Source: Schmidtea nova
Lineage: Eukaryota
Assembly (NCBI GenBank): GCA_044892505.1
Contig: CM097883.1
Location: forward strand, 119,164,001-119,206,086
Length of the DNA stretch: 42,086 nt
Direction of reading: 5' to 3'
In this document: piece after piece, positions 480 through 18,411 of the stretch
Layout of the letters: every line of letters begins with the position of its first letter
Position numbering within the stretch: position 1 is the stretch's first letter
The notes under the pieces: model-generated
Seen by the model: only the letters and a program-made list of their open reading frames with translations
What the model was told of the DNA's origin: nothing
Database searches by the model: none
Translations under genes and position numbers: made by a program

Positions 480-1268
480 TATTTCATAGTATTTTGTGTT
501 CAATAAAATGTATTATTTATTCACTAATGTTTTTGTTCATTAAAACTTTGTTATTGCTTTTCATTATAATATAAATTTGTCAGTTTAGAACGCTGGAAAT
601 TATATTTACAGCATTGTGTTTGAAAAACAAGAGGATAAAGCAAATTCAAACATTTATTTATAACTTTCAAGGAAAACAAACTAGGAAAAAAGAGTTAAGC
701 GAGTGTTGGGCTGGTAGAAGTGAAATTAAAATTTTGTTTTAATGCATCCAAAAATAGATTATCGCACACCCCCCCACCCTAGAAAATAGCACCACTGTCA
801 CTATTTCGCGATACTTCAACTACCGTCTTAACCCGAAAATAACACCATGGTGTTATGTTTGAATATAAGATCACTCTGGTGTTTTTTTCAAGTATAACAC
901 CATGGTGTTTTAAAATACTCTAATGTAATAACTTTTTTTTACATATTTTTAATATTAAAATAATAAAAAGTATTTCTTAAAATTTTATTATTATATATTC
1001 TTTTTTTTTATAAAATATCTTTTATAATTTTCAATTTTAAGTACTTTTAAAATTTTTCTTAATATAAGTTTTTAAGCTGTGTCCATTAAAGAAAATTGGA
1101 ACATTATAATAAAAAATGCAAATACTTAAACTTCATTTGAATATCTAGTATCAAATCCAATTCAAACTGTGGTAATGGTAGAAATTGATCAGTATTTTGG
1201 GATACATATGCTTGGTTAATTAGCATTATATTAATGTTTAAATATTAAATAAAAAACCATGGTGTTAT

Positions 1269-1889
1269 AGTAGAGTAGGGGGAGCGCCCAAGAACAGGAA
1301 CAGGCCCCCCTCCCCCCTAAAATTTTTTTTACCCCCCCAAAAAAAATTTTTTTTGTTTAAATGAAGTGAATTTTTTAAATTTTTTATTTTGTTTAAATTA
1401 AGTGAATTTTTTATTTTGTTTAAATGAAGTCAATTTTTTAATTTTAATTTTTTGTTTAAATGAAGTCAATTTAATTTATTATTTNNNNNNNNNNNNNNNN
1501 NNNNNNNNNNNNNNNNNNNNNNNNNNNNNNNNNNNNNNNNNNNNNNNNNNNNNNNNNNNNNNNNNNNNNNNNNNNNNNNNNNNNNNNNNNNNNNNNNNNN
1601 NNNNNNNNNNNNNNNNNNTAATTTATATTTAATTTTTTATTTTTAATAATTTATTTTTATTAATTTATTTTTAATAATTTATATTTATTTATTTTAATTT
1701 ATATTTAATTTTAATTTATATTTATTTTTAATAATTTATTTTTATTAATTTATTTTTAATAATTTATATTTATTTTTAATAATTTATATTTATTTATTTA
1801 TTTTAATTAATAATTTATATTTATTTTTAATTTATTTTAATTAATATTTATTTTTAATTTATTTTTAATAATTTATTTAAATTTAAATT
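1269..1889 (+). repeat. Left Polinton TIR (inner boundary uncertain because of gaps)
   Basis: Terminal AGTAG motif, C-tracts, about five copies of TTTTGTTTAAATGAAGTGAATTTT, then AT-rich tandem repeats. Mirrored at the right end. Confidence 0.85.
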
Positions 1890-2267
1890 NNNNNNNNNNN
1901 NNNNNNNNNNNNNNNNNNNNNNNNNNNNNNNNNNNNNNNNNNNNNNNNNNNNNNNNNNNNNNNNNNNNNNNNNNNNNNNNNNNNNNNNNNNNNNNNNNNN
2001 NNNNNNNNNNNNNNNNNNNNNNNNNNNNNNNNNNNNNNNNNNNNNNNNNNNNNNNNNNNNNNNNNNNNNNNNNNNNNNNNNNNNNNNNNNNNNNNNNNNN
2101 NNNNNNNNNNNNNNNNNNNNNNNNNNNNNNNNNNNNNNNNNNNNNNNNNNNNNNNNNNNNNNNNNNNNNNNNNNNNNNNNNNTTTAAAATAATAATACTA
2201 ATATTTCATCACAGTATAAATAATACAATAAAGTAGATAAAAACAAAAAGAAATAAAATACAAATAT

Positions 2268-5200
2268 TTATTGAAATAAATCATCTTCATCTTCGTCATC
2301 TTCTTGAATATCTTCATCTTCGGTAATTGAATCCCCCATAACTGTAAAACTTTCCCTACAATGTCCATAAGCAATACTTTTATTTTTCTCAACCCAAAGT
2401 CTCTTATCATCGAGGTTAGTAAGTGCAATTTTTGAAAACTTATTAGTAAAAATTTGATGATTTTTACTCACAAATCGAGACTGCTCTACTGAAACTATAG
2501 TATTATTTCTATAACAATCAAGATAAGACCGATGCTTCAGTTTAGTATCTTTCAAACAGACGCCTTTAGCCTTTAAACATTCCTTATCACCTAAAAGACT
2601 ATAACATTTAGGTCTAAGAAAAACCCATTCCTTATATTTATGACCCTTATTTTCGTCTTTAAACTTTCCTATAACAGAATCAAGTTTTTTCGAATATAAA
2701 GAATGACTAGGGTCGTAATTCGATGTATCCAAAAGACAATCTCTAACCATCGCAGGTAACAGAACATCTAACCTACAATTCTTAATCTCCAAGAAAAAAG
2801 AGTCAGTATCGCCTGCAACTATATTAATCTCACAGTTGAATTCATTGCGATATTTTTGCAATTCTTCATACTGGAGTTGATACATTCTAAGTTTAGATAA
2901 ATCCAGTACACTTTGGCCAATGTAGCTGGGTCTATCTAAACACACAGAGTCCTTATTAAGCAAGACAGAAATTAGATCATCATCAATCCTATAAGTTTTT
3001 CTAAAGGTAGGTTTTGATGTATATGTAATCAGTTTTGATGCTGAATTACAAAGTCGTAAATTGAGTCTTTTCTTAAGATTTTCGACAGTTTTTCCATAAA
3101 GACTATTATTTAAAAGTTTGTAATAGTTTTTATCTAAAACAAACGATGAAGCTGCCCTAAGTTCAGTGTTCGTATCAATATATTTTTTAAAGATGGGTTT
3201 CTGTTTGTACTGAACAGCCCGATGAACTCGTGTTATTTTAACACCCAAAGAAACAAAAAGCTTGAGAAGCCTCCAATGAACAACATAGTTGAACTTTGGA
3301 TAATGTGTTAACATTAACTTCTCAACTTTAGAATTGGGAGCACACATTTTCTCTGCTGCAACCGGAAAGTCATTTAATTTATCGTGAATTTCAACTGGGA
3401 TTACCAAGTCAACTTCAAATGTTACACCGATTGTTAAAAGTTCCAAGTCAGCATCCATCAAATTAATTAATTTATTTAATTTTTTCTCATCATTAATCCA
3501 TTTAAATTTACCACAAGGTAATTTTTGGCTTAAAGCCCAACCGTACAAATTATTAATGTCGATGTAAAGTAGTTCAGTCGTTTCGGAGGATACTACGTGA
3601 TGCTTGTTGACAAATGTCAAACCACCACGGATCCCCCCTTCGAAAAAATTATACATCTCCATATCCTGGAGCAATTCAATAGGTTCTTCCAAGGTAAGAA
3701 GTGCAGAAGCCCACGACATACCTGGAATACCCAAGAAATTCAACGGTTCTAACCTATTATGAGAAATTGACTTGGCTCTAAACTGTTGAAAGAAATCAGC
3801 AAGAAGAAAGACGTCAAGTTTTAAGTATATCATCATATAGTCACAAAGAGTTTGACAATTAGTTTCCCTCCAAATAACTAATGCCTTGTCGTATTCAGCC
3901 TGCTTAACACCCTCCCAGATTGGTGGTAATTCATATGTTTCATTCAAGACTTCTAACGATGTTGCAAAATCATAAGGAAAAATACCCTTACAATCAACAA
4001 TAGTCCCGGTGAATTCAGATCTAGTCAAAGGTAATGAAGTCAATGTTTTAACCGCATCATTTAAACTGGAGTTAATAAACTGACAAGAGTCAATGAATTT
4101 AATTGTTAAATCGCCGACTCTTGCAGACAAAGTAAGGAATTTTTCACTCGTAGTTGGAATACATGAGATTTTCCAAGTTGAAAAGTTTGTCAATCCATAT
4201 TTAAGAATATGGTGCATGTCATACCCTTTTAAATTATGAAACACAACCGGTAGTTCCTTACGAATCTGTCTAGTAAGATTGCATTTTAAGCAAGCAGCAC
4301 CCAAATATTCACCAGTGTAGTGATCATGGTCTCTGACTGGTTGTACTAAAGTTTTCCTACAGAGATAACAATTTGTAGATGATGCAAAAGATATTTTATT
4401 TTCAAAAGTCATAATAAGTGGTTTTTTGAAATTGTTTTTATAAAAAGGAAAAACAATTTCTTCACCTATATTATTAATTTCAGCAAGAAAATTAGTAACG
4501 CAATCAAGACCCAAGAAACTCTTGTAAATCTTTTCTCCAGTAAAGTTATTTACAAGTAAAAGACCGGCAGATATTGGGACATGTCTTTGAAAGTACTTAT
4601 CATCAGCAGGTAAGATTGCCTCAAAATCGGCGTAAACAACAAAAGGTGGAGTAATTGTTTTGCCCCAATTACTAAATGTCAAATAAGGATTTTTAGGCAA
4701 AGTATATAGAGTTGTGCCTAATTGATTTTTAGAACACAACTCTTGATGACGAACAAAAGAATCTTGATATCTAAACCCATTCAAGCAACGATGGTACCAT
4801 ATACTTTGAATACGAGTACCAGATATCGATTTATTGTCAAGATTTAAAAGCCTATCAAGATTGGTTACTGCTATATAATGAAAAGAGTCACCATTTTGTA
4901 AAAGAATCAAGTTAATAGGAATTCCGTCTACTACTTTCGACCTATGAATTATGTCAATACACGGATGTTTGAAAACTTCAGGCTTAGTGTCTAGAATTCC
5001 AGATTCATCATATGAAAGTACGTTAATCGCATATCCCGGGTTTTTAGCTTCAAACTTTGGGATATTGCAAAGACGCATAGGCAAATCAGAAGGACTAAAG
5101 TTAACATCAGAAAGATTGTAATTACTGATCCTATGTTTATTTTTACGGCCAGATATCTCATCATATTTAATAATTACCAAAACAGAATAGATAAAGCACA

Positions 5201-6245
5201 AGTCATCAGAATTCTGAACATTTACAACACAATGTTTTGATTTTAAAGATTCAGGAGTGTCAATACCACCGTAACCTATCAACCTACTTATCTCAGAAAA
5301 TTTGGTTAATATGAAATGAATTTCATTAATTTTATTAATTATCCAGTTACTACCTCTATTATTAATTAATGTAATTTTTTCATTAAGAATATTAATGCCA
5401 TCGTCTATAAAGGTATCTGTGACAGGTTTTGCAGAGTTAGAAATAACTATAGTTTGAAAAGCACCATCTTTTTCAAACTCAACTTCGATGCAAAATTGAA
5501 TTTTAACCGTTCCCATGGTTTCAATTACATTATTTAATTTATTAATTAAATTATCAGGTACAAACATGCTTTTTAAATTCAAGTTAGTGACAATCATTTT
5601 AACTATAGCATGTGATTTATTTAAATCAAATTTAACAACAGGTAAAATGGAGCCACCAACCTGTACTTCAGGAACTAAAGAGTATTTATAGTCAGAAATT
5701 TTATCAAAAGAACCACCAATTTGAATATTATCGATAGGATCAAAAGAGTCTACAACCACAAAATCAGAAAGATTATTTAAATCAAGAATGTTATCAGGAA
5801 TGATATCATTATCAAGAATGGTATCAAGAATGTTATCAACAGGAATGGTATCATTATCATCATCATCATCAGAAATTACAACTATATCTGAAGGAACAAC
5901 CGAATGAACAACTGAAGAAATATCATCAGAAAGATCTGACTTGTTAATTTTGACTGGGATTGGACTATTTACATTACATTTTCTTTTAATCGGTAATTTA
6001 AAAATTGATTTTTTAGATGTTTTAAATTGATCTAAATGATCGCAATGAGTATTGTAAAATTCAATATACGAAGAGGACGAAGTAGATTTGCAAAAAGGAC
6101 AAATGTAGTAAGTTTTACAGTTATGAGGGTATGCATAATATTTTTCCATTATTTCATGGCATTTTACATCATGAATTGTGGAGTTGCAATATTTTTGATA
6201 TAAATTGCCTATAATATTTAAAAATAATATAAAAATAATGATCAA
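2268..6245 (-). CDS. POLB: Protein-primed family B DNA polymerase with an N-terminal extension and an endonuclease VII-like Zn module
   Basis: Exonuclease motifs YADFEA, FHNLKGYD and YLKLDV. Polymerase motifs DINNLYGWA, KLLNNSLYGKT and AGDTDS. CYLC..DHDHYTG..AACLKCN insert. The ORF-track start is TTG; the first ATG is at 6149 and the true start may be spliced. Confidence 0.97.
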   Translation of the reverse strand: MIIIFILFLNIIGNLYQKYCNSTIHDVKCHEIMEKYYAYPHNCKTYYICPFCKSTSSSSYIEFYNTHCDHLDQFKTSKKSIFKLPIKRKCNVNSPIPVKINKSDLSDDISSVVHSVVPSDIVVISDDDDDNDTIPVDNILDTILDNDIIPDNILDLNNLSDFVVVDSFDPIDNIQIGGSFDKISDYKYSLVPEVQVGGSILPVVKFDLNKSHAIVKMIVTNLNLKSMFVPDNLINKLNNVIETMGTVKIQFCIEVEFEKDGAFQTIVISNSAKPVTDTFIDDGINILNEKITLINNRGSNWIINKINEIHFILTKFSEISRLIGYGGIDTPESLKSKHCVVNVQNSDDLCFIYSVLVIIKYDEISGRKNKHRISNYNLSDVNFSPSDLPMRLCNIPKFEAKNPGYAINVLSYDESGILDTKPEVFKHPCIDIIHRSKVVDGIPINLILLQNGDSFHYIAVTNLDRLLNLDNKSISGTRIQSIWYHRCLNGFRYQDSFVRHQELCSKNQLGTTLYTLPKNPYLTFSNWGKTITPPFVVYADFEAILPADDKYFQRHVPISAGLLLVNNFTGEKIYKSFLGLDCVTNFLAEINNIGEEIVFPFYKNNFKKPLIMTFENKISFASSTNCYLCRKTLVQPVRDHDHYTGEYLGAACLKCNLTRQIRKELPVVFHNLKGYDMHHILKYGLTNFSTWKISCIPTTSEKFLTLSARVGDLTIKFIDSCQFINSSLNDAVKTLTSLPLTRSEFTGTIVDCKGIFPYDFATSLEVLNETYELPPIWEGVKQAEYDKALVIWRETNCQTLCDYMMIYLKLDVFLLADFFQQFRAKSISHNRLEPLNFLGIPGMSWASALLTLEEPIELLQDMEMYNFFEGGIRGGLTFVNKHHVVSSETTELLYIDINNLYGWALSQKLPCGKFKWINDEKKLNKLINLMDADLELLTIGVTFEVDLVIPVEIHDKLNDFPVAAEKMCAPNSKVEKLMLTHYPKFNYVVHWRLLKLFVSLGVKITRVHRAVQYKQKPIFKKYIDTNTELRAASSFVLDKNYYKLLNNSLYGKTVENLKKRLNLRLCNSASKLITYTSKPTFRKTYRIDDDLISVLLNKDSVCLDRPSYIGQSVLDLSKLRMYQLQYEELQKYRNEFNCEINIVAGDTDSFFLEIKNCRLDVLLPAMVRDCLLDTSNYDPSHSLYSKKLDSVIGKFKDENKGHKYKEWVFLRPKCYSLLGDKECLKAKGVCLKDTKLKHRSYLDCYRNNTIVSVEQSRFVSKNHQIFTNKFSKIALTNLDDKRLWVEKNKSIAYGHCRESFTVMGDSITEDEDIQEDDEDEDDLFQ

Positions 6246-6310
6246 AATTATGATAAAAATTATGATAAAAATATTATGATAAAAATATTATGATAAAAAT
6301 TATGATAAAA
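6245..6310. repeat. Tandem 13-15 bp AAAAT(AT)TATGATA repeats in the divergent promoter region
   Basis: About five copies visible between pPolB and the 6444 gene. Confidence 0.8.
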
Positions 6311-6443
6311 TATCAATGATGTATATCAAGTGTGTATACACACATTCAAAATATCGTAATATATATTTATTGATTATGATTGGTCAAAATAATTTAAAAA
6401 TTACTATATAAACGACTTATAAAATTAAAATAATCATTAAAAA

Positions 6444-6972
6444 ATGTATCAACTGAAAAGTAAGATTAATTAATTTTAAATGATTATTTTTTAATTTATT
6501 TTTTCTAGAATCGAAAAGAATGACAAAACAAGAAATAATGAAGATTATTCTTGAGGAAAATCCTATTTCTTCATCTAATTTGGCATTGAATTCACCAGTT
6601 CAATTCATGCAATACTCGATGGAGTATTTGAAATATCCAATCAAATATTCATTTAAAGTAATTAATTAAAAATTATAAAAATCTAATTAATATTATTTAC
6701 AGGAACCTGTTACATTGAAACAATGTCAATTCAATATTCAGGTTGGAAAAATCGGGGAAACTGATAGAAAGAATCTATCTGAAATTTTAATGCTAATAAA
6801 TAAAGATATTCAATTCAACGAGGAATTCACATATATGAACTGTAAAAAAGAAACAGATTTAGGCAAATTAGATGATAATTCAATGTATCAAATTCAAATT
6901 ATCTTACAAGGATTTAAACAATCTGAAAACGTGATAAAGCCTATATGGAAAATTACTGATTTTCATGAATAA
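6444..6972 (+). CDS. Three-exon 144-aa protein, join(6444-6459,6509-6657,6703-6972); possibly an OB-fold ssDNA-binding protein
   Basis: GTAAG..TTCTAG (49 nt) and GTAAT..TTACAG (45 nt) introns join into one open frame, MYQLKKSKRMTKQEIMKII...IKPIWKITDFHE. TATATAAA at 6405 lies upstream. The function is a guess from the C-terminal beta-strand pattern. Confidence 0.7.
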
Positions 6973-7029
6973 ACTCTTGTTTAATTTATTTGTTCTTTAT
7001 TTATTTTTAATAATTGATTTTTATAATAA

Positions 7030-7230
7030 ATATATTTTAAAATATATAAATTTATAAAATATATTTATTATAAAAATTAATTAAATTCATAAAATGTAAA
7101 AATATATTTATTATAAAAATTAATTAAAATCATATAATGTAAAAAATATATTTATTATAAAAATTAATTAAATTCATAAAATGTAAAAATATATTTATTA
7201 TAAAAATTAATTAAAATCATATTATATAAA
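7030..7230. repeat. AT-rich tandem repeat (~45-bp unit)
   Basis: Repeated AAATATATTTATTATAAAAATTAATTAAA..CATAAAATGT units. Confidence 0.75.
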
Positions 7231-7234
7231 AAAT

Positions 7235-7456
7235 CTAATTGATAATAATAGTTTCATCAATATATAAATACTTACATTTAAGTTTCGTTGTCATAATATT
7301 GCTTGGTATAATTTTCTTTGTCATTGTCATAATATTGCTTGGTATAATTTTCTTTGTCATTGTCATAATATTGCTTGGTATAATTTTCTTTGTCATAATA
7401 TTGCTTGGTATAATTTCCTTTGTCATAATATTATTTGATATAAATTTCATTGGCAT
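7235..7456 (-). CDS. Small repetitive basic peptide (73 aa, IIPSNIMT(MT)KK repeats); a 5'-UTR intron at 7516-7469 is likely
   Basis: 27/33-bp in-frame tandem repeats. A GTAAGT donor and TTTTCAG acceptor lie just upstream of the ATG. Confidence 0.45.
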   Translation of the reverse strand: MPMKFISNNIMTKEIIPSNIMTKKIIPSNIMTMTKKIIPSNIMTMTKKIIPSNIMTTKLKCKYLYIDETIIIN

Positions 7457-7764
7457 TATTTCAAAAATCTGAAAAGAAAAATTAATAAATATTCATAAAA
7501 AATTAAACTTACTTACTTAAGTTTGCGTGTTGTTAAAAATGTCGTTTATTTAAACGAAATTATTTTTAAATTAATGTAATTTAAAATTAATTAAATATTT
7601 ACAATATGTAATTTAAAATTAATTAAATATTTACAATATGTAATTTAAAATTAATTAAATATTTTACAATATTATTTTCAAATATAATTTAACAAATTCA
7701 AACATAAAAATTCCATAAATAGAAAAAGTCGTTTTATAATAAAAGTCGTTTTATAATAAAAATT

Positions 7765-8144
7765 TTATTTCATATATTTTAGCCAAGCTAAACAATGTTG
7801 CCCACAGGTTTTTGTCATTGGATTTTGATACCGAATTCTGTTATATTCTATTGGTTTTAACATTGACGATAATTTTTTCAATAATATCGGTGGATAATAA
7901 AATCCCATTGGATCAAACACGTATATTTTATCGGGTTTATTATAAATTGCAAGCCAATGTTCACCTTTGAGATTTGATGATTGAGTATTGACAATCAATG
8001 CTTTATTCACATCTATATACGGTATTTTATCTAGAGGAAAAACTCCTAGAAATTCCGATCCAATCAATTTTCTAGCAATCTGATCTACCTGAATTGAACT
8101 AAAATCAATAAAATTTAATTAATTAAAAATAAATCTTACTTCAT
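7765..8144 (-). CDS. PRO: Adenain-like (C5-type) cysteine maturation protease, join(8144-8140,8098-7765), 112 aa
   Basis: Catalytic motifs GEHWLA, FDPMG and QNPMTKTCGQHC. Removing a 41-nt GT-AG intron restores the typical N-terminus MNSIQVDQIARKLIGSEFLGVFPLD. Confidence 0.93.
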
Positions 8145-8221
8145 TTACTTTTTTAATTAATTAAAATTAGTTTATATTAAACCAATAATTTTCAATTAAA
8201 TCAACAATGTTTGAGCAGAGC

Positions 8222-9448
8222 TCAAACCAGTATTGTTCGATTAGCTGTAATTTGTAATTCCTTTTCAAAAACTCCATATACAATTACAGAAACTGATTCA
8301 GTCAATGGTGTACCAAATTTAATATCAAGTCTTAGATTACCTTGTTGTGGTAATTGACTTTGATTTAGGTCAAAATCTGGAGCCAAAACGAAGGTGAAAA
8401 AAGGATATTTACTTTTCCAATCTGCTAAAGTAATACCGCAATTCATACTCTTATTCAGGTAACCAAGGTTACGGACAATAGATTGCATATAACTAGTACT
8501 ACAAATATCATTTTCAAAATCTTGAGAATATTTTTCACGATAATCACTTCCTTTCGATAAAGTTAATGATTTGACATTAAAATGATCGTAAATAGAATAA
8601 GTTTCAGTAAAAGAACCACTATGTCTTTTATTTCCTTGAAACGCTACAAGAATAAAGTTTGGTAATCGTCTATCTCCAAAGATTTGTTCCTTATAAAATG
8701 AAGAAGAACCCATTGGCAATGAAAATTCTACAACTTCCTTATTTCTTATTGGGTAAATTGCATTTCTTGTACTAAGTCCAATTTGATGCCCAGCATAAAC
8801 TGATGGTTCTACTCGAACTCTTCTAACCATTAATTTTGCCTCTAATAATTCAATTATAGGTTCAATTTTTGTACATGTTAAACTATTGGATGGATTTGAT
8901 CTCGTCAATTTAATTTGAACACTAACACCAGGTAATAAATACTTGGGTTGTTCCATGAAATCGAAATGTAATGGAGAACAAATTGAAAATGGTTTTGATT
9001 TTGCAATCCATGCTTTTCTAGTAAGATCATGGTCATTGTATCCCATTGGAGTTAAAGATGTGTGTTTTGTATCACTATTGTAGTTGAGAATAGTTTCAAT
9101 CATGGCTTTGTGTGTAAATGTATCATTTCCTCCTTCAACTTTAGTAGAATTGAAAATTAATTCGGCTTCTTTAAAAAGAGTTTGGAAAAAGAAATTGTTG
9201 GGAGTAACATCAGCATCCAATCCTAAATTTTCACCCGATTTGTTTACAACTTTGACCTGAAGAGATAGTAAAGTATCGTTCAAATCTAAATATTCAGTTT
9301 GAGATCCATTGATGTAAAATTGAATAGATGATGTCCCAGCATCTGTAATTGAATTTGTTGGGTAAATATCTTCAAATGCACCATGTTCAATTACTGCTTG
9401 TGGAGATGGTCTATCAAAAAGACATAATTCAGATTTTGCACTAATCAT
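8222..9448 (-). CDS. PY: Double jelly-roll major capsid protein (Polinton PY)
   Basis: 408 aa with the characteristic start KSELCLFDRPSPQAVIE, YLDLNDTLL, MEQPKYLLPGV and C-terminal GNLRLDIKF. Confidence 0.92.
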   Translation of the reverse strand: MISAKSELCLFDRPSPQAVIEHGAFEDIYPTNSITDAGTSSIQFYINGSQTEYLDLNDTLLSLQVKVVNKSGENLGLDADVTPNNFFFQTLFKEAELIFNSTKVEGGNDTFTHKAMIETILNYNSDTKHTSLTPMGYNDHDLTRKAWIAKSKPFSICSPLHFDFMEQPKYLLPGVSVQIKLTRSNPSNSLTCTKIEPIIELLEAKLMVRRVRVEPSVYAGHQIGLSTRNAIYPIRNKEVVEFSLPMGSSSFYKEQIFGDRRLPNFILVAFQGNKRHSGSFTETYSIYDHFNVKSLTLSKGSDYREKYSQDFENDICSTSYMQSIVRNLGYLNKSMNCGITLADWKSKYPFFTFVLAPDFDLNQSQLPQQGNLRLDIKFGTPLTESVSVIVYGVFEKELQITANRTILV

Positions 9449-9852
9449 TTTTCAAATATTGTTCCATATCCTTTCATTCTTTTGTTTATATGTTTCTTCA
9501 TATTTCTTTTTCGTTTAAGAATTCCGCCATTTTGTTTATTTTCAGTTTTATTTTCGTTAAACACATCAGTCACTTTACTAATTACTTGTGGCAAATGATG
9601 AATCACATCGGGCAATGAGTCTTTAATTTCAGAAATGGCATTGGATTTTAGTGCAGGTAAAATCTTTGAATTATTATTTAACACATCATTGGCAGTTTTC
9701 ATACCAAAATTTCCAATACGTCTAAGAATTGGTAATGCAAATCTACCTATCGTTTTCAACCAACCAGTTCCATATTGTTTACCTACAAAATACGGTAATT
9801 CTCCACCTGATTGGCTGTTGCTATAGAAACTGATAATATCTGGATTATTCAT
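9445..9852 (-). CDS. Conserved small Polinton virion-type protein (135 aa) with QxGG/QxGxG motifs and an amphipathic segment
   Basis: QSGGELPYFVGKQYGTGWLKTIGRFALPIL resembles the small ORF usually found beside the MCP in animal Polintons. Basic C-terminus. Its stop overlaps the MCP start (ATGA). Confidence 0.75.
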   Translation of the reverse strand: MNNPDIISFYSNSQSGGELPYFVGKQYGTGWLKTIGRFALPILRRIGNFGMKTANDVLNNNSKILPALKSNAISEIKDSLPDVIHHLPQVISKVTDVFNENKTENKQNGGILKRKRNMKKHINKRMKGYGTIFEK

Positions 9853-9856
9853 TTAT

Positions 9857-10867
9857 TTAACGGAAATGTAATGTCAAGTAAGTTTTGTCTTCTTTTGCAA
9901 ATTTAACTATTTTTCCACTGTCATCACGAATATTGATTTCAATATTGTTTATATATGTGGAACTGACCGGTAAATACATTGGATTTTTCTCAACAATTTG
10001 AACCAAATCACCCTTTTTATGTTTTTCAACCCAAACACATTTCAATAGGGGAACTGACATGTCACCAACAAGAATTGGTTGAATAATATTCGTATAGATG
10101 AACATTTGCTGATGAAGTTTTAAAACTTGTGGATAATATACGCCATCAATAATTTTGTCAAAGAATTCTTGTTCAACTAATCCTAACGAATTTGCTAAAT
10201 TCCTACTAAATTTTACACTAGTTATATCATCTTCAAGAATTAATTTAATTAATTTTCCTTCTTTAATATCAATCACTTTAAATGGATGTGGATAAAAAGT
10301 TTCAATTTGATCAGATAATTCAGTAAGATTATTTATTATTAAATCGTCTTTGAAATTATCTGTGTATTCAACAGGAAAAGTATAAGTTATAGTAAACCGT
10401 ATAGTATCATCAAGTTTTTTATTTTCATTTGCTGGAATTTTAATTTTGTTTAATTCATCATTAAATGTCACAGTTTTTTCTTGAAACCCTAATTTTTTAG
10501 CTTCATCAACACTATCAAATATTATTTGAAATGGAAAATATTTACAATTTACATTTAAAATATTGCCATCAATATACATTAAATAATAATTAGAATCGTG
10601 ACTTATATCATATTCTTTCTTTTGTTGGTTAAAATTGAAATATTCATAACTAGAATGTAATTCATTTCTAATAAATTTTATACTTGAACTATTATAAAAT
10701 GGAAATTCATTGTACACAAAAGTAAAATCCATAAGAGCAACTTCCCAACTACCATCCAAATAAATTGGGTTTTGATATTCAACATTGAATTTTCCAGCTT
10801 TATTATTGGGATGTGTCAATGGACAAGAATTGCTTGGTAAATTAACATAAAAATCTTTTTTAATCAT
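9857..10867 (-). CDS. PX: Minor capsid protein/penton (PX), copy 2, with large central insert
   Basis: FYVNLPSNS..NKAGKF..WEVAL at the N-terminus; IYTNII.P..VGD..VPLL..YLPV..IEINIRDDSG..LTLHFR at the C-terminus. Confidence 0.9.
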   Translation of the reverse strand: MIKKDFYVNLPSNSCPLTHPNNKAGKFNVEYQNPIYLDGSWEVALMDFTFVYNEFPFYNSSSIKFIRNELHSSYEYFNFNQQKKEYDISHDSNYYLMYIDGNILNVNCKYFPFQIIFDSVDEAKKLGFQEKTVTFNDELNKIKIPANENKKLDDTIRFTITYTFPVEYTDNFKDDLIINNLTELSDQIETFYPHPFKVIDIKEGKLIKLILEDDITSVKFSRNLANSLGLVEQEFFDKIIDGVYYPQVLKLHQQMFIYTNIIQPILVGDMSVPLLKCVWVEKHKKGDLVQIVEKNPMYLPVSSTYINNIEINIRDDSGKIVKFAKEDKTYLTLHFR

Positions 10868-11897
10868 TTATTTTACGAAAATGTAGAGTCAAATGAGTCT
10901 TTGTATCTTTTGAAAATTTAATTAATTTTCCACTGTCATCACGAATATTGATTTCAATGTTGTTTATAGTTGATGTTGAAATCGGCAAATACATTGGATT
11001 CTTTATTTCAATTTGTACAACTTCGCCTTGGTCATATTTCTTGATCCAAATTGATTTTAGGAGGGGAACTCGTACATCTCCAACAGTTACTGGTTCAATA
11101 ATGTTGCTGTAAATGAACATTTGCTGATGAAGTTGTAAAATTTTGGGGATTTTTACACCAATTATTTCTGTATCAGTATATGTTTGTTTCTGTAGACCCA
11201 GAGATTTGGTTAAATTTGAATCAAAAGTAATTTTTGAAATATTATCCTGAAGAATAATTTTAACCAATTCATTATTGACAAGTTTCAATTCTTTAAATGG
11301 AGATGGATTAATTTTCATTAAATATCCTTGTAATTCCGGTAATGACGTTATGAATAATTCATCTTGAAAATAATAATCATTAACAGTTTTAATGTCATAA
11401 TTTATTAAAATTCCAAATTGTTCAAGACTATTATCATTCGTGAATTTTGGTAATTTTAAACGACAATGGTCATTTTCACTTATAATTGTGGTATTTGTCA
11501 ATATAAAACTTTTTGCATGTTCAAGATCTGGAAATGTAATTTTAAATGGAACATGTGGACAAACAATCACTAAATAATTATATTTTTCAATAAATACATC
11601 AGTGTCTGAACTAGGTTGAGAAACTATAACTTGAATTGTTTTATTTTGATTATTAATTCTCAAATAACTAATTTCTTGAATTTCTCTTTTAGTTTCAATT
11701 TGAATAAAAGAATTACTATAATACGGGAACAAATTATACACAAAAGTAAAATCAATCAAAGCAACTTCCCAATCGTCATTACTATTTAAATAAATCGGAT
11801 TTTGAAATTCTACATTAAAATTACTAGCTTCATTATTAGGATAAATAAGAGGACATGCATTGCTAGGCAAAATCATATAAAACTGGTTTTCTTTCAT
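10860..11897 (-). CDS. PX: Minor capsid protein/penton (PX), copy 1, with large central insert
   Basis: Same terminal motifs (FYMILPSNA, WEVAL, VGDVRVPLL, IEINIRDDSG, LTLHFR) with a different central domain. Confidence 0.9.
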   Translation of the reverse strand: MKENQFYMILPSNACPLIYPNNEASNFNVEFQNPIYLNSNDDWEVALIDFTFVYNLFPYYSNSFIQIETKREIQEISYLRINNQNKTIQVIVSQPSSDTDVFIEKYNYLVIVCPHVPFKITFPDLEHAKSFILTNTTIISENDHCRLKLPKFTNDNSLEQFGILINYDIKTVNDYYFQDELFITSLPELQGYLMKINPSPFKELKLVNNELVKIILQDNISKITFDSNLTKSLGLQKQTYTDTEIIGVKIPKILQLHQQMFIYSNIIEPVTVGDVRVPLLKSIWIKKYDQGEVVQIEIKNPMYLPISTSTINNIEINIRDDSGKLIKFSKDTKTHLTLHFRKIND

Positions 11898-11902
11898 AAT
11901 AT

Positions 11903-12988
11903 TTATTTAATCAATTGTTTTTCAGATATCCAACTTGGAGTTTCATAGCCATGCCATTTAACGTAATATTGTTTATATTTCCCATCAGTTTTGGTTTTTA
12001 AAATCTTTTGAATTCTAAAAACTGTGGGAGCTGGAATAACTTGAAGTTCTTGTTCGTAGAATTTACCCTCGATTACATTGTTTTCATGATCGGAAATAGT
12101 ATACATGACAGGATTTTGATTAGTATCAACATTTGAGATTTGATATACTTCATCACTCCAATTACTATCAAAATTTTTGATGAATGGAGAAGCACTGATT
12201 TTACTCATTCTCACATAATCACCTACTTTATATTTCGGTTTTTTATTAATTGATTTTAATCTATCTTTTATCCATCCATCAAAATTATTATTTGAATATA
12301 CATCGATAGGTTTCATTTTATTTAATCCCGAATGCGGTGAACGATTGTAACTGGAAATAATTTTCGGTAAAACATTTATCCATGTTTTGTTACCTTGATA
12401 CACAAAAAACTTTTTCAAACGATCTCTTAAAGTACGATTTAATCTTTCAACATGAGCAGCTTTGAATTGATAAAATACAGAATAATGATTGATTCCTTTA
12501 ATCACTTCTTTTACTTTGCTGTTATAAAACTCTTTTCCTAAATTAAAATTAATTAATTTTTAAAAATTTAATTTATTACCCAAATCAGTTTGTAAATTAC
12601 GTGGCTTCCCATCTTTAAATAAAGATTCAATAGCCTCAGCCATTTCATTAGCAGATTTAGTTTTTGTTGGAATAGCTCGTGCATAACGGCTAAAAACATC
12701 AATACAAGTCAAGATATATTTGTAACCCTTGTTAATTTTAGAATAAGGAATCATTTCCATCAAATCCATTTGCCATAAATCGTTACCCCCAAAAGTTTTA
12801 TATTTCCGTGTAGGAAATCTTTTCAACATTGGTTTATTTAAACTATATGCCAATTGATCAGATAACCATTTCTGAGTTTCATTCTTTGAACTTTTTATTC
12901 TTTTTGCCAATTTTTTGACTGAACCAAAACCATCGGGATCTTTTGGGTTTGTCCATATCGTTTTTATATTCTTCATGATTTTCTTCAT
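11903..12988 (-). CDS. INT: Retroviral-type (rve) DDE integrase with C-terminal chromodomain, join(12988-12580,12537-11903), 347 aa
   Basis: Catalytic WQMDL, TDLG and VERLNRTL. A 42-nt GTAAT..TTTAG intron restores TDLGKEFYN. SH3-like KYKVGDYVR and chromodomain YYVKWHGY..SWI. Confidence 0.95.
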
Positions 12989-13050
12989 TAATACAACAAT
13001 TTGTTAAAATATTTAAATCTATATTATGTTTATTCGGTTCAGAAATTTTA

Positions 13051-13380
13051 TTACCCATTTCTTAAAGATGAGATTGCGCTTATTGCTGATAATACTATTG
13101 GAATTAATGTACCGAGAAACCCACCCTTTTGTTTATATATTATTTTTCGCATAAGATTTCTATTTTTGGTATTCACTAATGATAAAAGTGAATTTTTATG
13201 TTTTTGTAGTTCAATTTTCTTTGATCTACTAATATTTACATTACCATGAACAATATTAAAAACGATTTCAAGTAAATCATCAATAACAAAGGGTGGGAAA
13301 GCTTGTAAAATTATCATTCGCTTATTTGTTGGAGCTTTAACCAAAGCATTAAAATACGGTAAACTACGTTCAAATTTCAT
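13051..13380 (-). CDS. Conserved small Polinton protein (PW-like) ending QKGGFL plus a hydrophobic tail
   Basis: NIVHGNV and KQKGGFLGTLIPIVLS match a recurrent small ORF of animal Polintons; the exact family name is uncertain. Confidence 0.75.
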   Translation of the reverse strand: MKFERSLPYFNALVKAPTNKRMIILQAFPPFVIDDLLEIVFNIVHGNVNISRSKKIELQKHKNSLLSLVNTKNRNLMRKIIYKQKGGFLGTLIPIVLSAISAISSLRNG

Positions 13381-13410
13381 GATTAAAATTTTTGTGTATA
13401 TTTATTTCGT

Positions 13411-13596
13411 TTATAATTTTATCCACTTCTTTACTTGTTTCTTTCTTTTACCAATCTTTTTGACAACTTTTTTAACTAATTTTGATTTTCGATCAACTTT
13501 TTTAAGAAGTTTTTGATCAACTTTTTTAAGTAGTTTTTGATCAGCTTTTTGAATAGCTTCTTTATTTAACTTGACAATTACTTTTTTAAATGACAT
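13411..13596 (-). CDS. Very basic Lys-rich 61-aa protein; candidate genome-condensing core protein
   Basis: ATG-initiated, QKLLKKVD repeats, packed between the ATPase and PW-like genes. Confidence 0.6.
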   Translation of the reverse strand: MSFKKVIVKLNKEAIQKADQKLLKKVDQKLLKKVDRKSKLVKKVVKKIGKRKKQVKKWIKL

Positions 13597-13617
13597 TATT
13601 ATTTCTTTTATTTATTT

Positions 13618-14241
13618 TCAATTTTGTTTATAAACCGTGACTCCATTTTCGTTAAATATATCCGTTCGGATACGTAAATCATCAGGACATTGTTGAGTAA
13701 AATCAAAGAATAAATATCCATGAGGAACTTTAGTAGCATCTTGAAATGAATTAATTAAAAATTTCCTATCATTAGGGTAAGCTTGTCTTGCTAGAAAATC
13801 AATAATTGTAGCATCTCTTGGGTTTTTGAATATAACCAAGTATTGAACATTTAAATTACGAGTTCTGTGACTACGACCTTGATGAAATAAATTTTGAGTA
13901 ATGAAAATTACAGTAACTCCTAAATGTCTACTAATTTTTGTGAATAAATTATTAAAATCTTTTTCTTTATTTGCTTCTTGGTACAAATCATCGATAATTA
14001 TAACATCGCCTTGTCGTAATCTAGATGACCAGTTTTTATCAAACCCTTTTATAATTGTCATTTTTAATTTGCAGAATTGATCTTGAGTCAGTCCATGTTC
14101 TTCATCAGCTCCCCGATGCCAGTAAATTTTATTGAATTTAGATTTAAACATTTTTGATTGCAACAATTTACATACAAATAATGTTTTTCCACTACCACTT
14201 GGGCCCACTATTTGATAAACTGCATCATTTCTTAATTCCAT
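13618..14241 (-). CDS. ATP: A32/FtsK-HerA-like genome packaging ATPase
   Basis: Walker A GPSGSGKT, Walker B IIIDD, then ISRHLGVTVIFITQNLF and PHGYLFFD. Confidence 0.95.
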   Translation of the reverse strand: MELRNDAVYQIVGPSGSGKTLFVCKLLQSKMFKSKFNKIYWHRGADEEHGLTQDQFCKLKMTIIKGFDKNWSSRLRQGDVIIIDDLYQEANKEKDFNNLFTKISRHLGVTVIFITQNLFHQGRSHRTRNLNVQYLVIFKNPRDATIIDFLARQAYPNDRKFLINSFQDATKVPHGYLFFDFTQQCPDDLRIRTDIFNENGVTVYKQN

Positions 14242-14301
14242 TTTTAATTAATTAATTATTAATTAATTTAATATTGTTTATATTTATTCAATTTTATAAA
14301 A

Positions 14302-14784
14302 ATGATAAGTAATATTAATTATATGGGCAAGTGTTTAGTTCCAAACATGATATTTCCTGTTGGGAAACCCCAGCAAGTTATAGATAGGAGTGGGAAGTAC
14401 CCTATTTTATTTTTCAGATCGGGAAAATGTCGTGTAATGGGTTGTAAGCAACCGTTAAAACCAGATGATTTGAAATATAAAATTTCCGATTTAAAAATTC
14501 AATCGATCACTATAACATTGGATATGGGTAAATCCATAAATTTATACGAATTGCAAAATAAAACAGAGTGCTGGTACGAACCCGAAATATTTCCAGCTTT
14601 AAGATTAATAAATTATAACCCGATTTGTATTAATATTTTTTCAAGTGGAAAAGTTGTAATATTAGGAATTAAAACATTGGATTATTTTAATCAAGTAAAT
14701 GAAATTAAAAATTATATTAATTCATTAATTAATAATGAATTAATTGATGAAAAATATCTCGATTTATTATTTAATTTTGTTTAA
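14302..14784 (+). CDS. TATA-binding-protein (TBP)-like protein inside the Polinton
   Basis: C-terminal repeat KIQSITITLD..INLYEL..YEPEIFPAL..INIFSSGKVVILGIKT matches the TBP pattern IQN..YEPELFPGL..LIFxSGKVVLTGAK. A shortened N-terminal repeat reads ISNI..LFFRSGKCRVMGCK. Confidence 0.85.
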   Translation: MISNINYMGKCLVPNMIFPVGKPQQVIDRSGKYPILFFRSGKCRVMGCKQPLKPDDLKYKISDLKIQSITITLDMGKSINLYELQNKTECWYEPEIFPALRLINYNPICINIFSSGKVVILGIKTLDYFNQVNEIKNYINSLINNELIDEKYLDLLFNFV

Positions 14785-14819
14785 ATACATTGTTATTTTA
14801 CAAATCCATATTTTTGAAA

Positions 14820-15205
14820 ATGTCTAAAAGTAAGTATTATTTTTAATTATCTATATTATTAATATTTTTAATTTAGCTTATTTATTTGAAGTGGTCCTGA
14901 AGAAAATTCAAGAATTATATCCAAAAATAAAAGATTCTTTGGATTATTGTGCGCCAGAGTTATTGGTTCATAAGATATATAAGCTTACTGGGATCAATAT
15001 CGAACAATTGCTCGAGATTCACTACGATATGGTGCTAGGAGCTGGAGTCAAGTGCGTTGAAAATTGCATAGTTTGCAATGATTCACTAAGAGTATCCTGT
15101 GTAAATGGATGTGCATGCTGTCATGATTTTAAAAGAGATCATTCGGTGCATATCTTAATGTCAGAAATGCGTAAAGCATATTATAACGACATTTATAATT
15201 TATAA
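14820..15205 (+). CDS. Two-exon Cys/His-rich 112-aa protein, join(14820-14829,14877-15205); probable Zn binder
   Basis: A 47-nt GTAAGT..TTTAG intron gives MSKTYLFEVVLKKIQE...; Cys cluster KCVENCIVC..SCVNGCACCH..H..H. Confidence 0.7.
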
Positions 15206-15808
15206 TAAAGTTTTGTGATTTAGTTGTTCTTTATTTTTATTTCAAAGTTTGTTCTTATTAATTTACTATTTTATTGTATTATTTACACTGTGATGAAATA
15301 TTAGTGTTATTATTTTAGAAATTTTTCTAAGNNNNNNNNNNNNNNNNNNNNNNNNNNNNNNNNNNNNNNNNNNNNNNNNNNNNNNNNNNNNNNNNNNNNN
15401 NNNNNNNNNNNNNNNNNNNNNNNNNNNNNNNNNNNNNNNNNNNNNNNNNNNNNNNNNNNNNNNNNNNNNNNNNNNNNNNNNNNNNNNNNNNNNNNNNNNN
15501 NNNNNNNNNNNNNNNNNNNNNNNNNNNNNNNNNNNNNNNNNNNNNNNNNNNNNNNNNNNNNNNNNNNNNNNNNNNNNNNNNNNNNNNNNNNNNNNNNNNN
15601 NNNNNNNNNNNNNNNNNNNNNNNNNNNNNNNNNNNNNNNNNNNNNNNNNNNNNNNNNNNNNNNNNNNNNNNNNNNNNNNNNNNNNNNNNNNNNNNNNNNN
15701 NNNNNNNNNNNNNNNNNNNNNNNNNNNNNNNNNNNNNNNNNNNNNNNNNNNNNNNNNNNNNNNNNNNNNNNNNNNNNNNNNNNNNNNNNNNNNNNNNNNN
15801 NNNNNNNN

Positions 15809-16380
15809 CCAAAAATAAATTTANNNNNNNNNNNNNNNNNNNNNNNNNNNNNNNNNNNNNNNNNNNNNNNNNNNNNNNNNNNNNNNNNNNNNNNNNNNNN
15901 NNNNNNNNNNNNNNNNNNNNNNNNNNNNNNNNNNNNNNNNNNNNNNNNNNNNNNNNNNNNNNNNNNNNNNNNNNNNNNNNNNNNNAAAATAAATAAATAT
16001 AAATTAAAATTAAATATAAATTNNNNNNNNNNNNNNNNNNNNNNNNNNNNNNNNNNNNNNNNNNNNNNNNNNNNNNNNNNNNNNNNNNNNNNNNNNNNNN
16101 NNNNNNNNNNNNNNNNNNNNNNNNNNNNNNNNNNNNNNNNNNNNNNNNNNNNNNNNNAAATAATAAATTAAATTGACTTCATTTAAACAAAAAATTAAAA
16201 TTAAAAAATTCACTTCATTTAAACAAAATTAAAAATTAAAAATTCACTTAATTTAAACAAAATAAAAAATTTAAAAAATTCACTTCATTTAAACAAAATT
16301 TTTTTTTTTTGGGGGGGGTAAAAAAAAATTTTTAGGGGGGGGGGTCTGTTGCTGTTCTTGGGCGCTCCCCCTACTCTACT
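15809..16380 (-). repeat. Right Polinton TIR (inner boundary uncertain because of gaps)
   Basis: Reverse complement of 1269 onward, with a few substitutions and homopolymer-length differences. Confidence 0.85.
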
Positions 16381-18411
16381 TGTTATATTTGAATTTTTCT
16401 TCAATGTTTTAAAAATTCAAAATTTTTTAAAAACTCAAATACAACACCATGGTGTTATTTTCGGATTAAGACGGTAGTTATTGCGTGTTTTAAAAAATCA
16501 AGTTTACCTATAGATTAAAAAGTTTTATGGATTTTCAAGTAAACATATTTTTAAAAAAGTGCTGCACTTTATTTAAGTCTTATTATTGATTTTTAAGTGC
16601 AAAATAGTTATTTTTGGGCACAAATCATCGTTTTTCATAGGGATACACAGATCTTGATAATAAGTGCAAATACTTATAAAATACAGTGCTCCAAAACATA
16701 AAAATCGATATTATTACAAAAGTGTTAAATCAACTTGCGCAGATCGGATTTACACACGAAAAATACACAAGAATTGAATGGGGAAGATCACTGCTTATAT
16801 ATAGAATACGAAATGCATGATCAAAGAATAAAATCGGTATTACAATAAAGAGAGTATTTCAATAATGATTTATTAAAAATTTTAGAAGAAATCTCCATTG
16901 AAATGTCGGTAAAATAACAGAGATTAAAATGAAAATAGAATTAAAATTAAATTTGATTCTTTTAATCAATCTATTAAAGTGGATGCACACATGATTTAAT
17001 CGAGTTAAAAATAAATATTAAAAAAACAAATAAAGTAAATTGTACAATTAAATTTACAGAAAATAAATAAATAATCATTTTTCAAAATACATAAATTAAA
17101 TATTAAAATAATTATATAAATTAAATTAATAATATTCTTATTTTACAAACATAATGTGTAGGCTTCATTTAGAATTAGTATAAATAGGCGCTGAGAAATC
17201 ATAATTCTAGCTCACTTACTTACTTGCCGCGGACAAACAATTCTACTTGTATTTTTGTTTAATTCTACAAAACAGCACTAGTAATTGTATTTTGTTATTC
17301 AAGTGTAAGGCGTAATTAGACGATTTTACTTAATAAACATTTGAAATATGATTTTAATTTTTATTCATGGTTTGTTCAATTTGATTTTCCTTTAACTTAG
17401 TCAAATAATGGTTGTGAAACCGGTTTCCCAAAGCAGCTTTAGTCCTACCATTCACCAGGCGAATTCAAGGTTTAAGCCTTGGTATATAATAATTAAAAAG
17501 GTAAATTTGAAGTCATTCAAGAATAGGCTTAAGCAGCCTGGTGGATATAAGCATGATGATTATTTTGATGTTTTAGGATAAATAAGTGGGATCTGAAATA
17601 GGATAGATATAAAATTAGGAATTTATCACTCCAAATGACCGTAAACTGGATATGTGCGTAAGTCTTTCTATCGGCAGCAGGAACCCGAAAGAGAATACAA
17701 CGAGTAGTTTGGCAACAAAGCTCACCTGCTCACTAGATTCTCACCAAGTACAGTACCATCATAGTTTGCCAAGGAGTAACTATAGGTATACGAGTAAATC
17801 AGTTAACATTTATGATGGGGTGAGTTGTAGTTATCCCTAGACTAATAATAATTTTGTAGCAACCAATAACGCGAATATAAAGAATACCTGCAAACACACA
17901 TACCATCATCATAAATAACCTTATCTTGAAACTGCAATTTTGACACATTATTACGTAGTATGCTTGTTTAATTAAGTATTTATTCCTTAAAAAATATATA
18001 TTTTGAAAGAATAAAACTTATCAAGAAAATACAATTAATTTATTTGTTTAAATAAACTAATAATACACAAAGGTATGCCGTAACTAACTCGTTTAAATTC
18101 AGTACATGCGACAGAACTTTAACCAAAATTATTTTAAACAAAACAGATAAGTTAAGTTGTACAAACTTTGGAATTATAACTATAATAGATTAATCTAAAA
18201 AATAAACAATTTTATTTATACAATAAAGGTCAGTGGTTACAGAAAAAGCTGGGTATTATTAACCGATATCATACACTAAGACTACCAAATTTCTGAAATC
18301 TGACGCTGATTTACTATATTTATAAAAATAGATCACAATAAAAATTATAACAAAATGTTATCACAAAATCAACAAATTAAATTTGACATTTTATCAATTA
18401 ACGTGATTCTA

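Follow-up and report, generated by a model that had tools for sequence, protein, structure and literature searches.

How does a Polinton of the animal type activate its capsid genes, and does it need a helper virus to do so? The question is raised by a 42,086-nucleotide stretch of Schmidtea nova contig CM097883.1 (positions 119,164,001 to 119,206,086; hereafter the window), which holds a 15.1-kb, beta-adintovirus-like Polinton at 1269..16380. One of its genes encodes a small relative of the TATA-binding protein (TBP), here called mini-TBP. We propose, with a probability of roughly 0.6, that mini-TBP is an element-encoded late-gene switch, predicted to bind the sequence TATAAAC and working like the vTBP of herpesviruses. 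A literature search found no pairing of TBP with a TATAAAC box in Polintons; in PMC8502044, TBP occurs only as a label in a figure legend, and the viruses drawn there come largely from datasets other than animal ones.

The element has the ends of a Polinton/Maverick, that is, terminal inverted repeats (TIRs) and a 6-bp target-site duplication (TSD). The TSD, previously described as perfect, is indeed TGTTAT on both sides (1263..1268 and 16381..16386, forward strand), a match expected by chance at ~7e-4. The left TIR (1269..2236) contains two N gaps and the right TIR (15266..16380) three; these are all five gaps of the element, and 2183-15331 is gap-free. Because both the outer arms and the inner ends pair (2185-2236 with 15266-15317, 94% complementary), each TIR is reckoned to be ~1 kb long, much of it N. 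The outer arms show 205 identities in 212 aligned columns, with 7 mismatches and 14 gap columns. Thus, the high TIR identity reported in the first-pass annotation stands, but at 96.7% it falls short of 100%.

With the introns taken out, no stop codon interrupts the eleven in-frame segments of the core genes (10,353 nt in all), which together with the TSD and TIRs bears out the earlier description of an intact Polinton with open genes. Zero stops in 10.4 kb limits post-insertion decay to less than ~0.5%, provided that the locus is a single copy, and the element is likely young or recently integrated. Alternatively, the assembly may have merged several similar copies into one intact consensus interior, the locus itself being older or damaged. 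The gapped TIRs are a sign of a short-read scaffold, the TIR mismatch of 1.65% per arm, if it reflects age, predicts ~9 stops where none is observed, and sequencing runs from the same organism contain only 0.69–0.84 of the sampled words. None of the 8 runs listed was of RNA, which carries no weight on expression, and a share of 0.06 in a second organism was set aside. We consider this reading doubtful, given the matching TSD and flanks that together make up a small inverted-repeat element; the TIR differences, moreover, may predate insertion or be homopolymer errors. The matter concerns the age of the locus, not the promoter system.

Six GT-AG introns of 41–49 nt and 86–95% A+T are predicted, and splicing would yield products of 144, 112, 343, and 112 residues. 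Collinearity with relatives backs these short introns, and with them the earlier suggestion that the element relies on host splicing. Damage was considered as the source of a 42-nt insert in the integrase gene and rejected: its ends are GT-AG, it contains an in-frame stop, and the codons on either side line up with those of all six relatives shown. Intact vertebrate Mavericks are intronless in their core ORFs, according to Barreat and Katzourakis (PMC8097293), whereas here introns are predicted in the integrase and protease genes.

The genes from polymerase to ATPase, apart from the two accessory genes taken up last, are as follows; all lie on the reverse strand. The protein-primed DNA polymerase B, pPolB, occupies 2268..6170. 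Its 1300-aa open frame, counted from the first Met as the putative start, has exonuclease and polymerase motifs, shares 54% with the pPolB of the relative L010, and contains an EndoVII/HNH-like insert and Cys/His motifs that look vOTU-like by eye only. No Pfam polymerase family was matched, PF03175 being absent at E 0.1; a divergent PolB unlike PF03175 is a beta adintovirus trait. An adenain-type protease of 112 aa follows at 7765..8144 (predicted intron 8099-8139; PF00770). The 408-aa product of 8222..9448 is a candidate major capsid protein (MCP) by its position, its size, and 133 homologs; it has no Pfam, NCBIfam, or PDB match. A conserved 135-aa ORF (9445..9852), with homologs in 5 of 55 metagenomic loci, sits between penton and MCP in the PW/Cupiennin position. 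Two pentons (minor capsid proteins), as claimed earlier, are present: penton 1 (335 aa, 9857..10864) and penton 2 (345 aa, 10860..11897), 45% identical to each other. The N- and C-terminal penton motifs fit the Polinton PX alignment in Fig. S2 of PMC4028283, and the MCP candidate is one gene away; MCP and penton profile searches of the PDB gave nothing credible.

The rve integrase with a chromo-like tail (343 aa, 11903..12976; PF00665, E 3e-9) is collinear with uninterrupted relatives across its predicted 42-nt intron (12538-12579). Overlapping its 5′ end is a 59-aa ORF (12879..13058) that starts MGN and has a Cys pair. This pattern recurs in L005, L008, L010, L013, and L056, so the earlier gene list, which overlooked it, was incomplete. 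Next come a 109-aa protein with an adenovirus pX-like C-terminus in the GasderminX position (13051..13380; PF05829, E 1e-5), a Lys-rich 61-aa peptide that is a candidate core protein (13411..13596; L010 has a similar one in this position), and an A32/FtsK-type packaging ATPase (207 aa, 13618..14241; PF04665). Pfam cut-offs are reached by the integrase, the protease, the ATPase, the pX-like tail, and the TBP.

The element has in common with Polintons, Mavericks, and beta adintoviruses (Starrett et al., PMC8502044) pPolB, rve integrase, ATPase, adenain, a candidate hexon, penton, and the pX-tailed protein, and it keeps the beta adintovirus order integrase-penton-X-hexon-adenain. The definition of that group includes an OTU domain in PolB, GasderminX, and Cupiennin; here, the pX tail is supported by Pfam and the OTU-like motifs by eye only. 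It differs from them in mini-TBP with a matching box, predicted introns in the integrase and protease genes, and two pentons.

The mini-TBP gene (14302..14784, forward strand; 160 aa) has no upstream TATAAAC. Its product passes the Pfam TBP threshold and is modelled with a TBP fold, so the earlier claim of an own TBP-like factor holds. The model (pLDDT 91.8) resembles the two-repeat β-saddle of cellular TBP (PF00352) at Z 12.6–12.9; on yeast TBP residues 66–240, it gives Z 12.6 and an rmsd of 2.9 over 145 residues. Retained are three phenylalanines, the Asn69 equivalent, and the C-lobe glutamates that in TBP bind TFIIB (PMC7221094). Unlike cellular TBP, mini-TBP is ~30 residues shorter, has polar changes on its DNA face, and lacks the N-lobe helices in the model, where residues 1–80 are without helix at pLDDT >90. 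Missing with them is the helix H2 surface used by TFIIA, TAF1, Brf, and Mot1. Cellular TBP has four intercalating phenylalanines; mini-TBP has Pro at the Phe99 equivalent. In simulation, loss of a loop Phe could weaken DNA bending (PMC5809078).

Across 22 mini-TBP proteins, E93, E95, F38, F97, and F113 are invariant, as is the proline at the fourth Phe position (22/22 each), and relatives are 43–72% identical. Asn6, Arg44, and Met46 occupy DNA-facing positions of the N-lobe and are near-invariant, the N-lobe residues having been mapped onto TBP by spacing and by eye, without residue-level superposition. The N-lobe Phe pair of TBP reads base pairs 7–8 (PMC3142196), and the residue pattern suggests that mini-TBP is remodelled where TBP reads TATA positions 7–8. 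For TATA position 7, the Bucher matrix counts C in 2 of 389, and TATAAACG reached 27% activity in plant protoplasts (PMC10005294), both in keeping with the proposed switch. The TBP-like proteins of Nucleocytoviricota match the fold (best E 5e-8, at most 21% identity to mini-TBP). They are diverged at the TFIIB site and often paired with a viral TFIIB (PMC7221094), whereas the mini-TBP glutamates are invariant; in the element, we recognised neither a TFIIB gene nor any further candidate transcription factor. The TBP tree does not assign the window protein to any supported subgroup, and the full-length TBP of the distant Polinton L058 forms a long branch; thus, no order of events follows from it. 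L058, L050/L055, and the mini form may be stages of TBP reduction.

The first-pass annotation stopped short of a promoter signal and overlooked the TATAAAC boxes. TATAAAC lies 32–104 nt ahead of 10 of 15 gene starts in the element. On the forward strand, a box at 6407..6413 is 37 nt before the start of the single-stranded DNA-binding protein (SSB)-family gene. The others are on the reverse strand: 8170..8176 (32 nt before the protease), 9484..9490 (42 nt, MCP), 9947..9953 (within the penton 1 coding sequence, 101 nt before the 135-aa ORF), 10962..10968 (within that of penton 2, 104 nt before penton 1), 11971..11977 (within the integrase 3′ end, 80 nt before penton 2), 13131..13137 (79 nt, 59-aa ORF), 13409..13415 (35 nt, pX-like gene), 13626..13632 (a palindromic site, 36 nt before the basic peptide), and 14276..14282 (41 nt, ATPase). 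Boxed genes are those for capsid, packaging, core, protease, and SSB; TBP and polymerase are unboxed. The element contains 11 copies of TATAAAC and the 27 kb of flank a single one; TATAAA is followed by C at 11 of its 50 occurrences in the element versus 1 of 102 in the flanks, and none of 20,000 random placements reached 10 boxed starts. Three boxes in the window sit inside TATATAAAC, equally a canonical TATA. The motif TATAAA(A)CGA was dropped in favour of TATAAAC, as 8 of 100 shuffles reached its 5 matches. An initiator signal ~30 nt behind the box is weak, with CA at 7 and 6 of 43.

Relatives have the box in the interval −60 to −18 ahead of the ATPase (11/12), MCP (4/6), and pX-like (5/9) genes; at the protease site, an exact TATAAAC occurs in 2 of 8 only. 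The TBP gene has none (0/44), 16 of those 44 being preceded by a canonical TATAWAWR, and integrase starts have none either (0/8). Positions 20–60 nt ahead of an ORF account for 73 of 123 TATAAAC versus 7 of 54 TATAAAG. In ten relatives, box strand bias is 74 to 2, and spacing peaks at 30–39 nt (49/98). The penton Ile-Asn is encoded as ATA AAC in 7 of 7 genes, these codons making up 21% and 19% of usage. TBP clusters of at least 2.5 kb have the box in 15 of 19 cases, and L056, retrieved through its ATPase alone, contains both mini-TBP and boxes. The pattern is absent from two distant Polintons, L058 and L057; these two related contigs are the negative controls, L057 being partial with TBP not seen, and L059 was uninformative. 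IMG/VR scans with TBP, MCP, and ATPase profiles found no relative.

The analysis shows how the element is laid out, where the boxes lie, which fold and residues its TBP has, and what the clade conserves; from this, we infer binding, TFIIB recruitment, timing, splicing, and activity as follows. This coding-intact Polinton would have two transcription classes. The early class, mini-TBP, polymerase, and probably the Cys-rich gene, would be read by host TBP/TFIID. Mini-TBP would then bind the TATAAAC boxes and, by way of the glutamates kept in its C-lobe, bring in Pol II and TFIIB of the host, the TBP–TFIIB contact being one that depends on DNA; it would evade control by TFIIA, TAF1, and Mot1 because the N-lobe helices are lost. 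The capsid, penton, core, protease, ATPase, and SSB genes would be switched on together, and the host spliceosome would process several of the transcripts.

The same box could be a deliberately weak TATA read by host TBP, with mini-TBP as a decoy or repressor that sits on the boxes or titrates TFIIB, silencing the provirus or host genes. Host-type TBP does bind a box with C at position 7, going by the title of PDB 1QN3, and the 27% activity of TATAAACG in plant protoplasts (PMC10005294) is partial function. Mini-TBP is also short of one intercalating Phe and both N-lobe helices. Its DNA-facing N-lobe changes, however, are near-invariant among such dissimilar proteins, a pattern more readily explained by altered specificity than by decay, and a TBP gene that is box-free in every case has the layout of an early activator. 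A decoy is therefore unlikely.

Since mini-TBP and the box co-occur within one clade, shared descent alone suffices to explain their correlation, which counts against the proposed switch. The box might then be a clade-wide late promoter for another reader, such as a paralog of TBP in the host, a different protein of the element, or a helper giant virus as in virophages, and the role of mini-TBP would be unrelated. We regard such another reader as very unlikely: nuclear Pol II is indicated by introns of spliceosomal type and by a box spacing like that of TATA, L058, with an ordinary full-length TBP, is box-free, and the element itself offers no second recognised factor.

The proposed mini-TBP switch has a counterpart in the vTBPs of beta- and gammaherpesviruses (ORF24, UL87, BcRF1), which are likewise virus-encoded, have polar DNA-face changes, and use a variant TATA, the TATT box, for late genes (PMC12529657). 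ORF24, however, is a multidomain protein of 752 aa in which none of the four Phe is lost; it acts as part of a six-protein complex and binds Pol II directly, and it is modelled as incompatible with TFIIB, whereas mini-TBP retains the TFIIB site. The TATT box differs at position 4 and the Polinton box at position 7. Mini-TBP, at only 160 aa, is thus not a large multidomain TATT reader, which leaves the proposal that it works like one unaffected; it would converge with vTBP along a different route.

We give an even chance to a broader proposal, that a widespread Polinton clade has the smallest known viral late-transcription system: a 150–160-aa TBP derivative that shed its regulatory lobe, came to prefer TATAAAC, and makes use of the host's TFIIB, so that protein and box form an orthogonal TBP–TATA pair. 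If so, it would be the missing switch from dormant provirus to virion production in helper-independent nuclear Polintons; vertebrate Maverick virions have not been seen, according to PMC8097293. With the factor named, its box defined to seven bases, and ten starts predicted, the proposal is open to binding and reporter assays. The box may serve as a sequence marker for late genes and overlooked small ORFs, and a natural TBP without the TFIIA/Mot1 surface would be a tool for initiation studies.

The accessory gene set, called atypical at first pass, largely characterises a clade, whose members share the TBP-like gene, the 144-aa gene, and the 59-aa ORF. Of 55 metagenomic loci, 23 have the TBP-like gene next to core genes of a Polinton, and L010 carries the core set together with TBP, the SSB-family gene, two pentons, and the basic peptide. 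Only two genes are left without a clade explanation. One is a 73-aa repeat-derived ORF (7235..7456, reverse strand; predicted 5′ UTR intron 7469-7512). The other is the Cys-rich ORF (14820..15205, forward strand; 112 aa; predicted intron 14830-14876), for which none of 7 candidates scored, no Pfam, PHROGs, or NCBIfam family was matched, and the metagenomic loci gave no match.

The 144-aa gene (6444..6972, forward strand), described earlier as spliced, has two predicted introns (6460-6508 and 6658-6702) whose removal gives the product. It probably encodes an SSB, with a possible T7 gp2.5/Enc34-type OB fold. This assignment comes from a model of the relative P0147, not of the window protein; the top four structural matches of that model are T7 gp2.5/Enc34/ASFV CP312R-type SSBs (Z 6.7–7.3, below 8, with 104–113 residues aligned at <10% identity; next match Z 5.2). 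The family has no convincing Pfam or PDB sequence match, and an Atlas search was empty. SSDBP is labelled on two adintovirus maps in Fig. S2 of PMC8502044, so the SSB gene class is already known. As a replication gene that has a box, the SSB-family gene is an exception to the late class.

The element at 1269-16380 is an intact Polinton and so belongs to a known class. What makes it interesting is a system shared across its clade, a mini-TBP together with the motif TATAAAC, which opens Polinton gene control to direct testing. The claimed target-site duplication is borne out: TGTTAT is repeated at both ends, with a chance of match of about 7e-4. The terminal inverted repeats (TIRs) had been called nearly identical, which holds for 205 of 212 aligned columns in the outer arms, with 14 gap columns. 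Their inner ends pair at 2185-2236 and 15266-15317. All five N gaps lie inside the TIRs, so that no coding lesion, a concern raised in the first-pass annotation, can hide in them. Pfam matches cover the integrase, protease, ATPase, pX-like tail and TBP, and the polymerase gene carries polymerase motifs. The two pentons are 45% identical to each other, and both agree with the Polinton PX alignment in PMC4028283 (Fig. S2). The MCP candidate, of 408 aa, is assigned from its position and 133 homologs only. Polinton-1_SM (14,867 bp) is close to the element in size.

The genes are open, as claimed, with no stop in eleven core segments (10,353 nt). Since 5.4% of substitutions would create a stop, decay is below about 0.5%, if the interior represents one copy. 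Taking the TIR mismatch as age, about 9 stops would be expected, versus the 0 seen. Either the TIR differences are older than the insertion or are assembly noise, or else the interior is a collapsed consensus. Of the eight runs listed, five contained half or more of the words sampled: four come from one organism, and one is a soil metagenome.

When all 7-mers in 273 upstream windows were counted without a preset motif, TATAAAC ranked first, with 53 occurrences versus 2.3 in shuffled sequence. The element holds 11 occurrences at 10 sites, and the 26,974 nt of flank hold one. The box precedes 10 of 15 gene starts, a figure equalled by none of 20,000 random placements. The starts lacking it are those of TBP, polymerase, integrase, the Cys-rich gene and the repeat peptide (7235-7456, minus strand). 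Among relatives, it precedes the ATPase in 11/12, MCP in 4/6 and the pX-like gene in 5/9, versus 0/44 for TBP and 0/8 for integrase. For the pentons, the protease and the 135-aa gene between penton and MCP, the box lies farther upstream, within the preceding gene; the box-bearing penton codons are ATA AAC in 7/7, and the site before the protease is exactly TATAAAC in only 2/8. In contig L050, ATAAAC stands ahead of the ATPase and pX-like genes. Upstream of the repeat-peptide gene, at 7729-7755 (minus strand), are two tandem TATAAAACGAC variants and one AATAAACGAC.

For the TBP-like protein, 26 close homologs and 55 metagenomic loci were identified. A core Polinton gene is present at 23 of these loci, 4 have the SSB-family gene alone, and the remaining 28, all short contigs, have neither. 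After clustering at 80% identity, 19 clusters reach 2.5 kb or more, and 15 of them have the box; the other four are L058 and three contigs without virion genes. L056, a contig retrieved without use of TBP, carries both mini-TBP and boxes. The pattern is absent from the two control contigs, L057 and L058, a small control in which co-occurrence is confounded by descent. That TATAAAC is instead read by an unrelated reader seems to us improbable. L058, a distant Polinton, encodes an ordinary two-repeat TBP (11568-12122, minus strand; 185 aa; Pfam E 1e-36). L056-L059 are Polinton-like contigs deposited within bacterial MAGs, probably as eukaryotic contamination.

That the element has its own TBP-like gene (14302-14784, plus strand; 160 aa) is upheld by the Pfam match and by the predicted fold. 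The model (pLDDT 91.8) has no predicted helix within its first 80 residues, and 145 of its residues can be overlaid on yeast TBP 66-240, with Z 12.6 and rmsd 2.9. Residues were mapped through alignments, spacing and the yeast contact list in PMC12529657 (Table 1), with the flanking yeast residues and the numbers E186/E188 taken as standard background. The family retains, in yeast numbering, Asn69, Phe116, Phe190, Phe207 and both stirrup glutamates. It changes Phe99 to Pro, Val71 to Asn, Val122 to Arg, Thr124 to Met, Asn159 to Ser and Leu205 to Asn. According to PMC3142196, the two Phe residues of the N-lobe insert at base pairs 7-8, exactly where TATAAAC leaves the consensus. In PMC7221094, TFIIB is ascribed to the C-lobe glutamates, while TFIIA, TAF1, Brf and Mot1 are ascribed to the surface of the N-lobe helix. 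Both sites have diverged in the viral TBPs studied there, whereas mini-TBP keeps the TFIIB site. By eye, L050 and L055 show an intermediate form, with the Pro change and a seemingly retained first N-lobe helix.

With a probability of roughly 0.6, we infer that mini-TBP is an early product: it would be made early and would nucleate host Pol II complexes at TATAAAC boxes, from which the virion module would be transcribed. A role as decoy or repressor is unlikely, though less so than an unrelated reader. Among the matches listed from the open literature (in one case the top 8 of 243), no paper describes a Polinton mini-TBP/TATAAAC system. An element labelled TBP in PMC8502044 may be related.

The accessory set, described as atypical in the first-pass annotation, is for the most part a trait of the clade: 23 of the 55 TBP loci carry core Polinton genes, and L010 has nearly the full gene set, two pentons included. 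The family of the 144-aa gene (6444-6972), with its predicted introns, has 110 representatives. The predicted fold of one relative (pLDDT 96) has gp2.5-type SSBs as its top four structure matches, at a middling Z of 6.7-7.3. L015 and L030 have two copies of the SSB-family gene per contig, often immediately upstream of mini-TBP. A 59-aa MGN ORF is conserved and overlaps the start of integrase. No homologs of the Cys-rich gene were found in Pfam, PHROGs, NCBIfam or the metagenomic loci. By eye, L010:222-719 is a ubiquitin-conjugating-enzyme-like ORF. L010:9591-10055 belongs to a 154-aa family located after the protease in several loci, with a box in 5/10 and no counterpart among the window ORFs.

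Six GT-AG introns are predicted in the element, in line with the proposed reliance on host splicing, and collinearity with relatives agrees. The host sequence is AT-rich, and predicted introns are 41-49 nt. The integrase junction is uninterrupted in all six relatives listed, with which the flanking codons are collinear. The protease intron has identical position and phase in L010, shares its donor with L034 and is missing from seven other relatives. All seven SSB-family genes inspected contain a short AT-rich GT-AG stretch, placed elsewhere than in the window gene. Thus, short introns appear to be a shifting trait of the clade, in contrast to intact vertebrate Mavericks, which are intronless (PMC8097293).

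Arms at 818-862 and 16435-16479, 93% complementary, belong to a ~0.5-kb element enclosing the Polinton, with TA at its apparent ends; it resembles a Tc1/mariner-type MITE. Decayed fragments of related Polintons lie at 21402-22144, 24463-24708 and 34217-34654 (identity to the intact element: pPolB 48-63% and 58%, MCP 58%). Judged from these sequences, the family has inserted in this region more than once. Remnants of a receptor-like ORF and of hAT-like transposases, recognized by eye at 23069-24046 and 36469-38381, gave no Pfam match at E 0.01 in the frames scanned. A diverged tandem duplication of ~1.6 kb occupies 25140-28484, and a dispersed repeat of 200-250 bp recurs at 19232-19432, 30367-30614 and 33980-34226.
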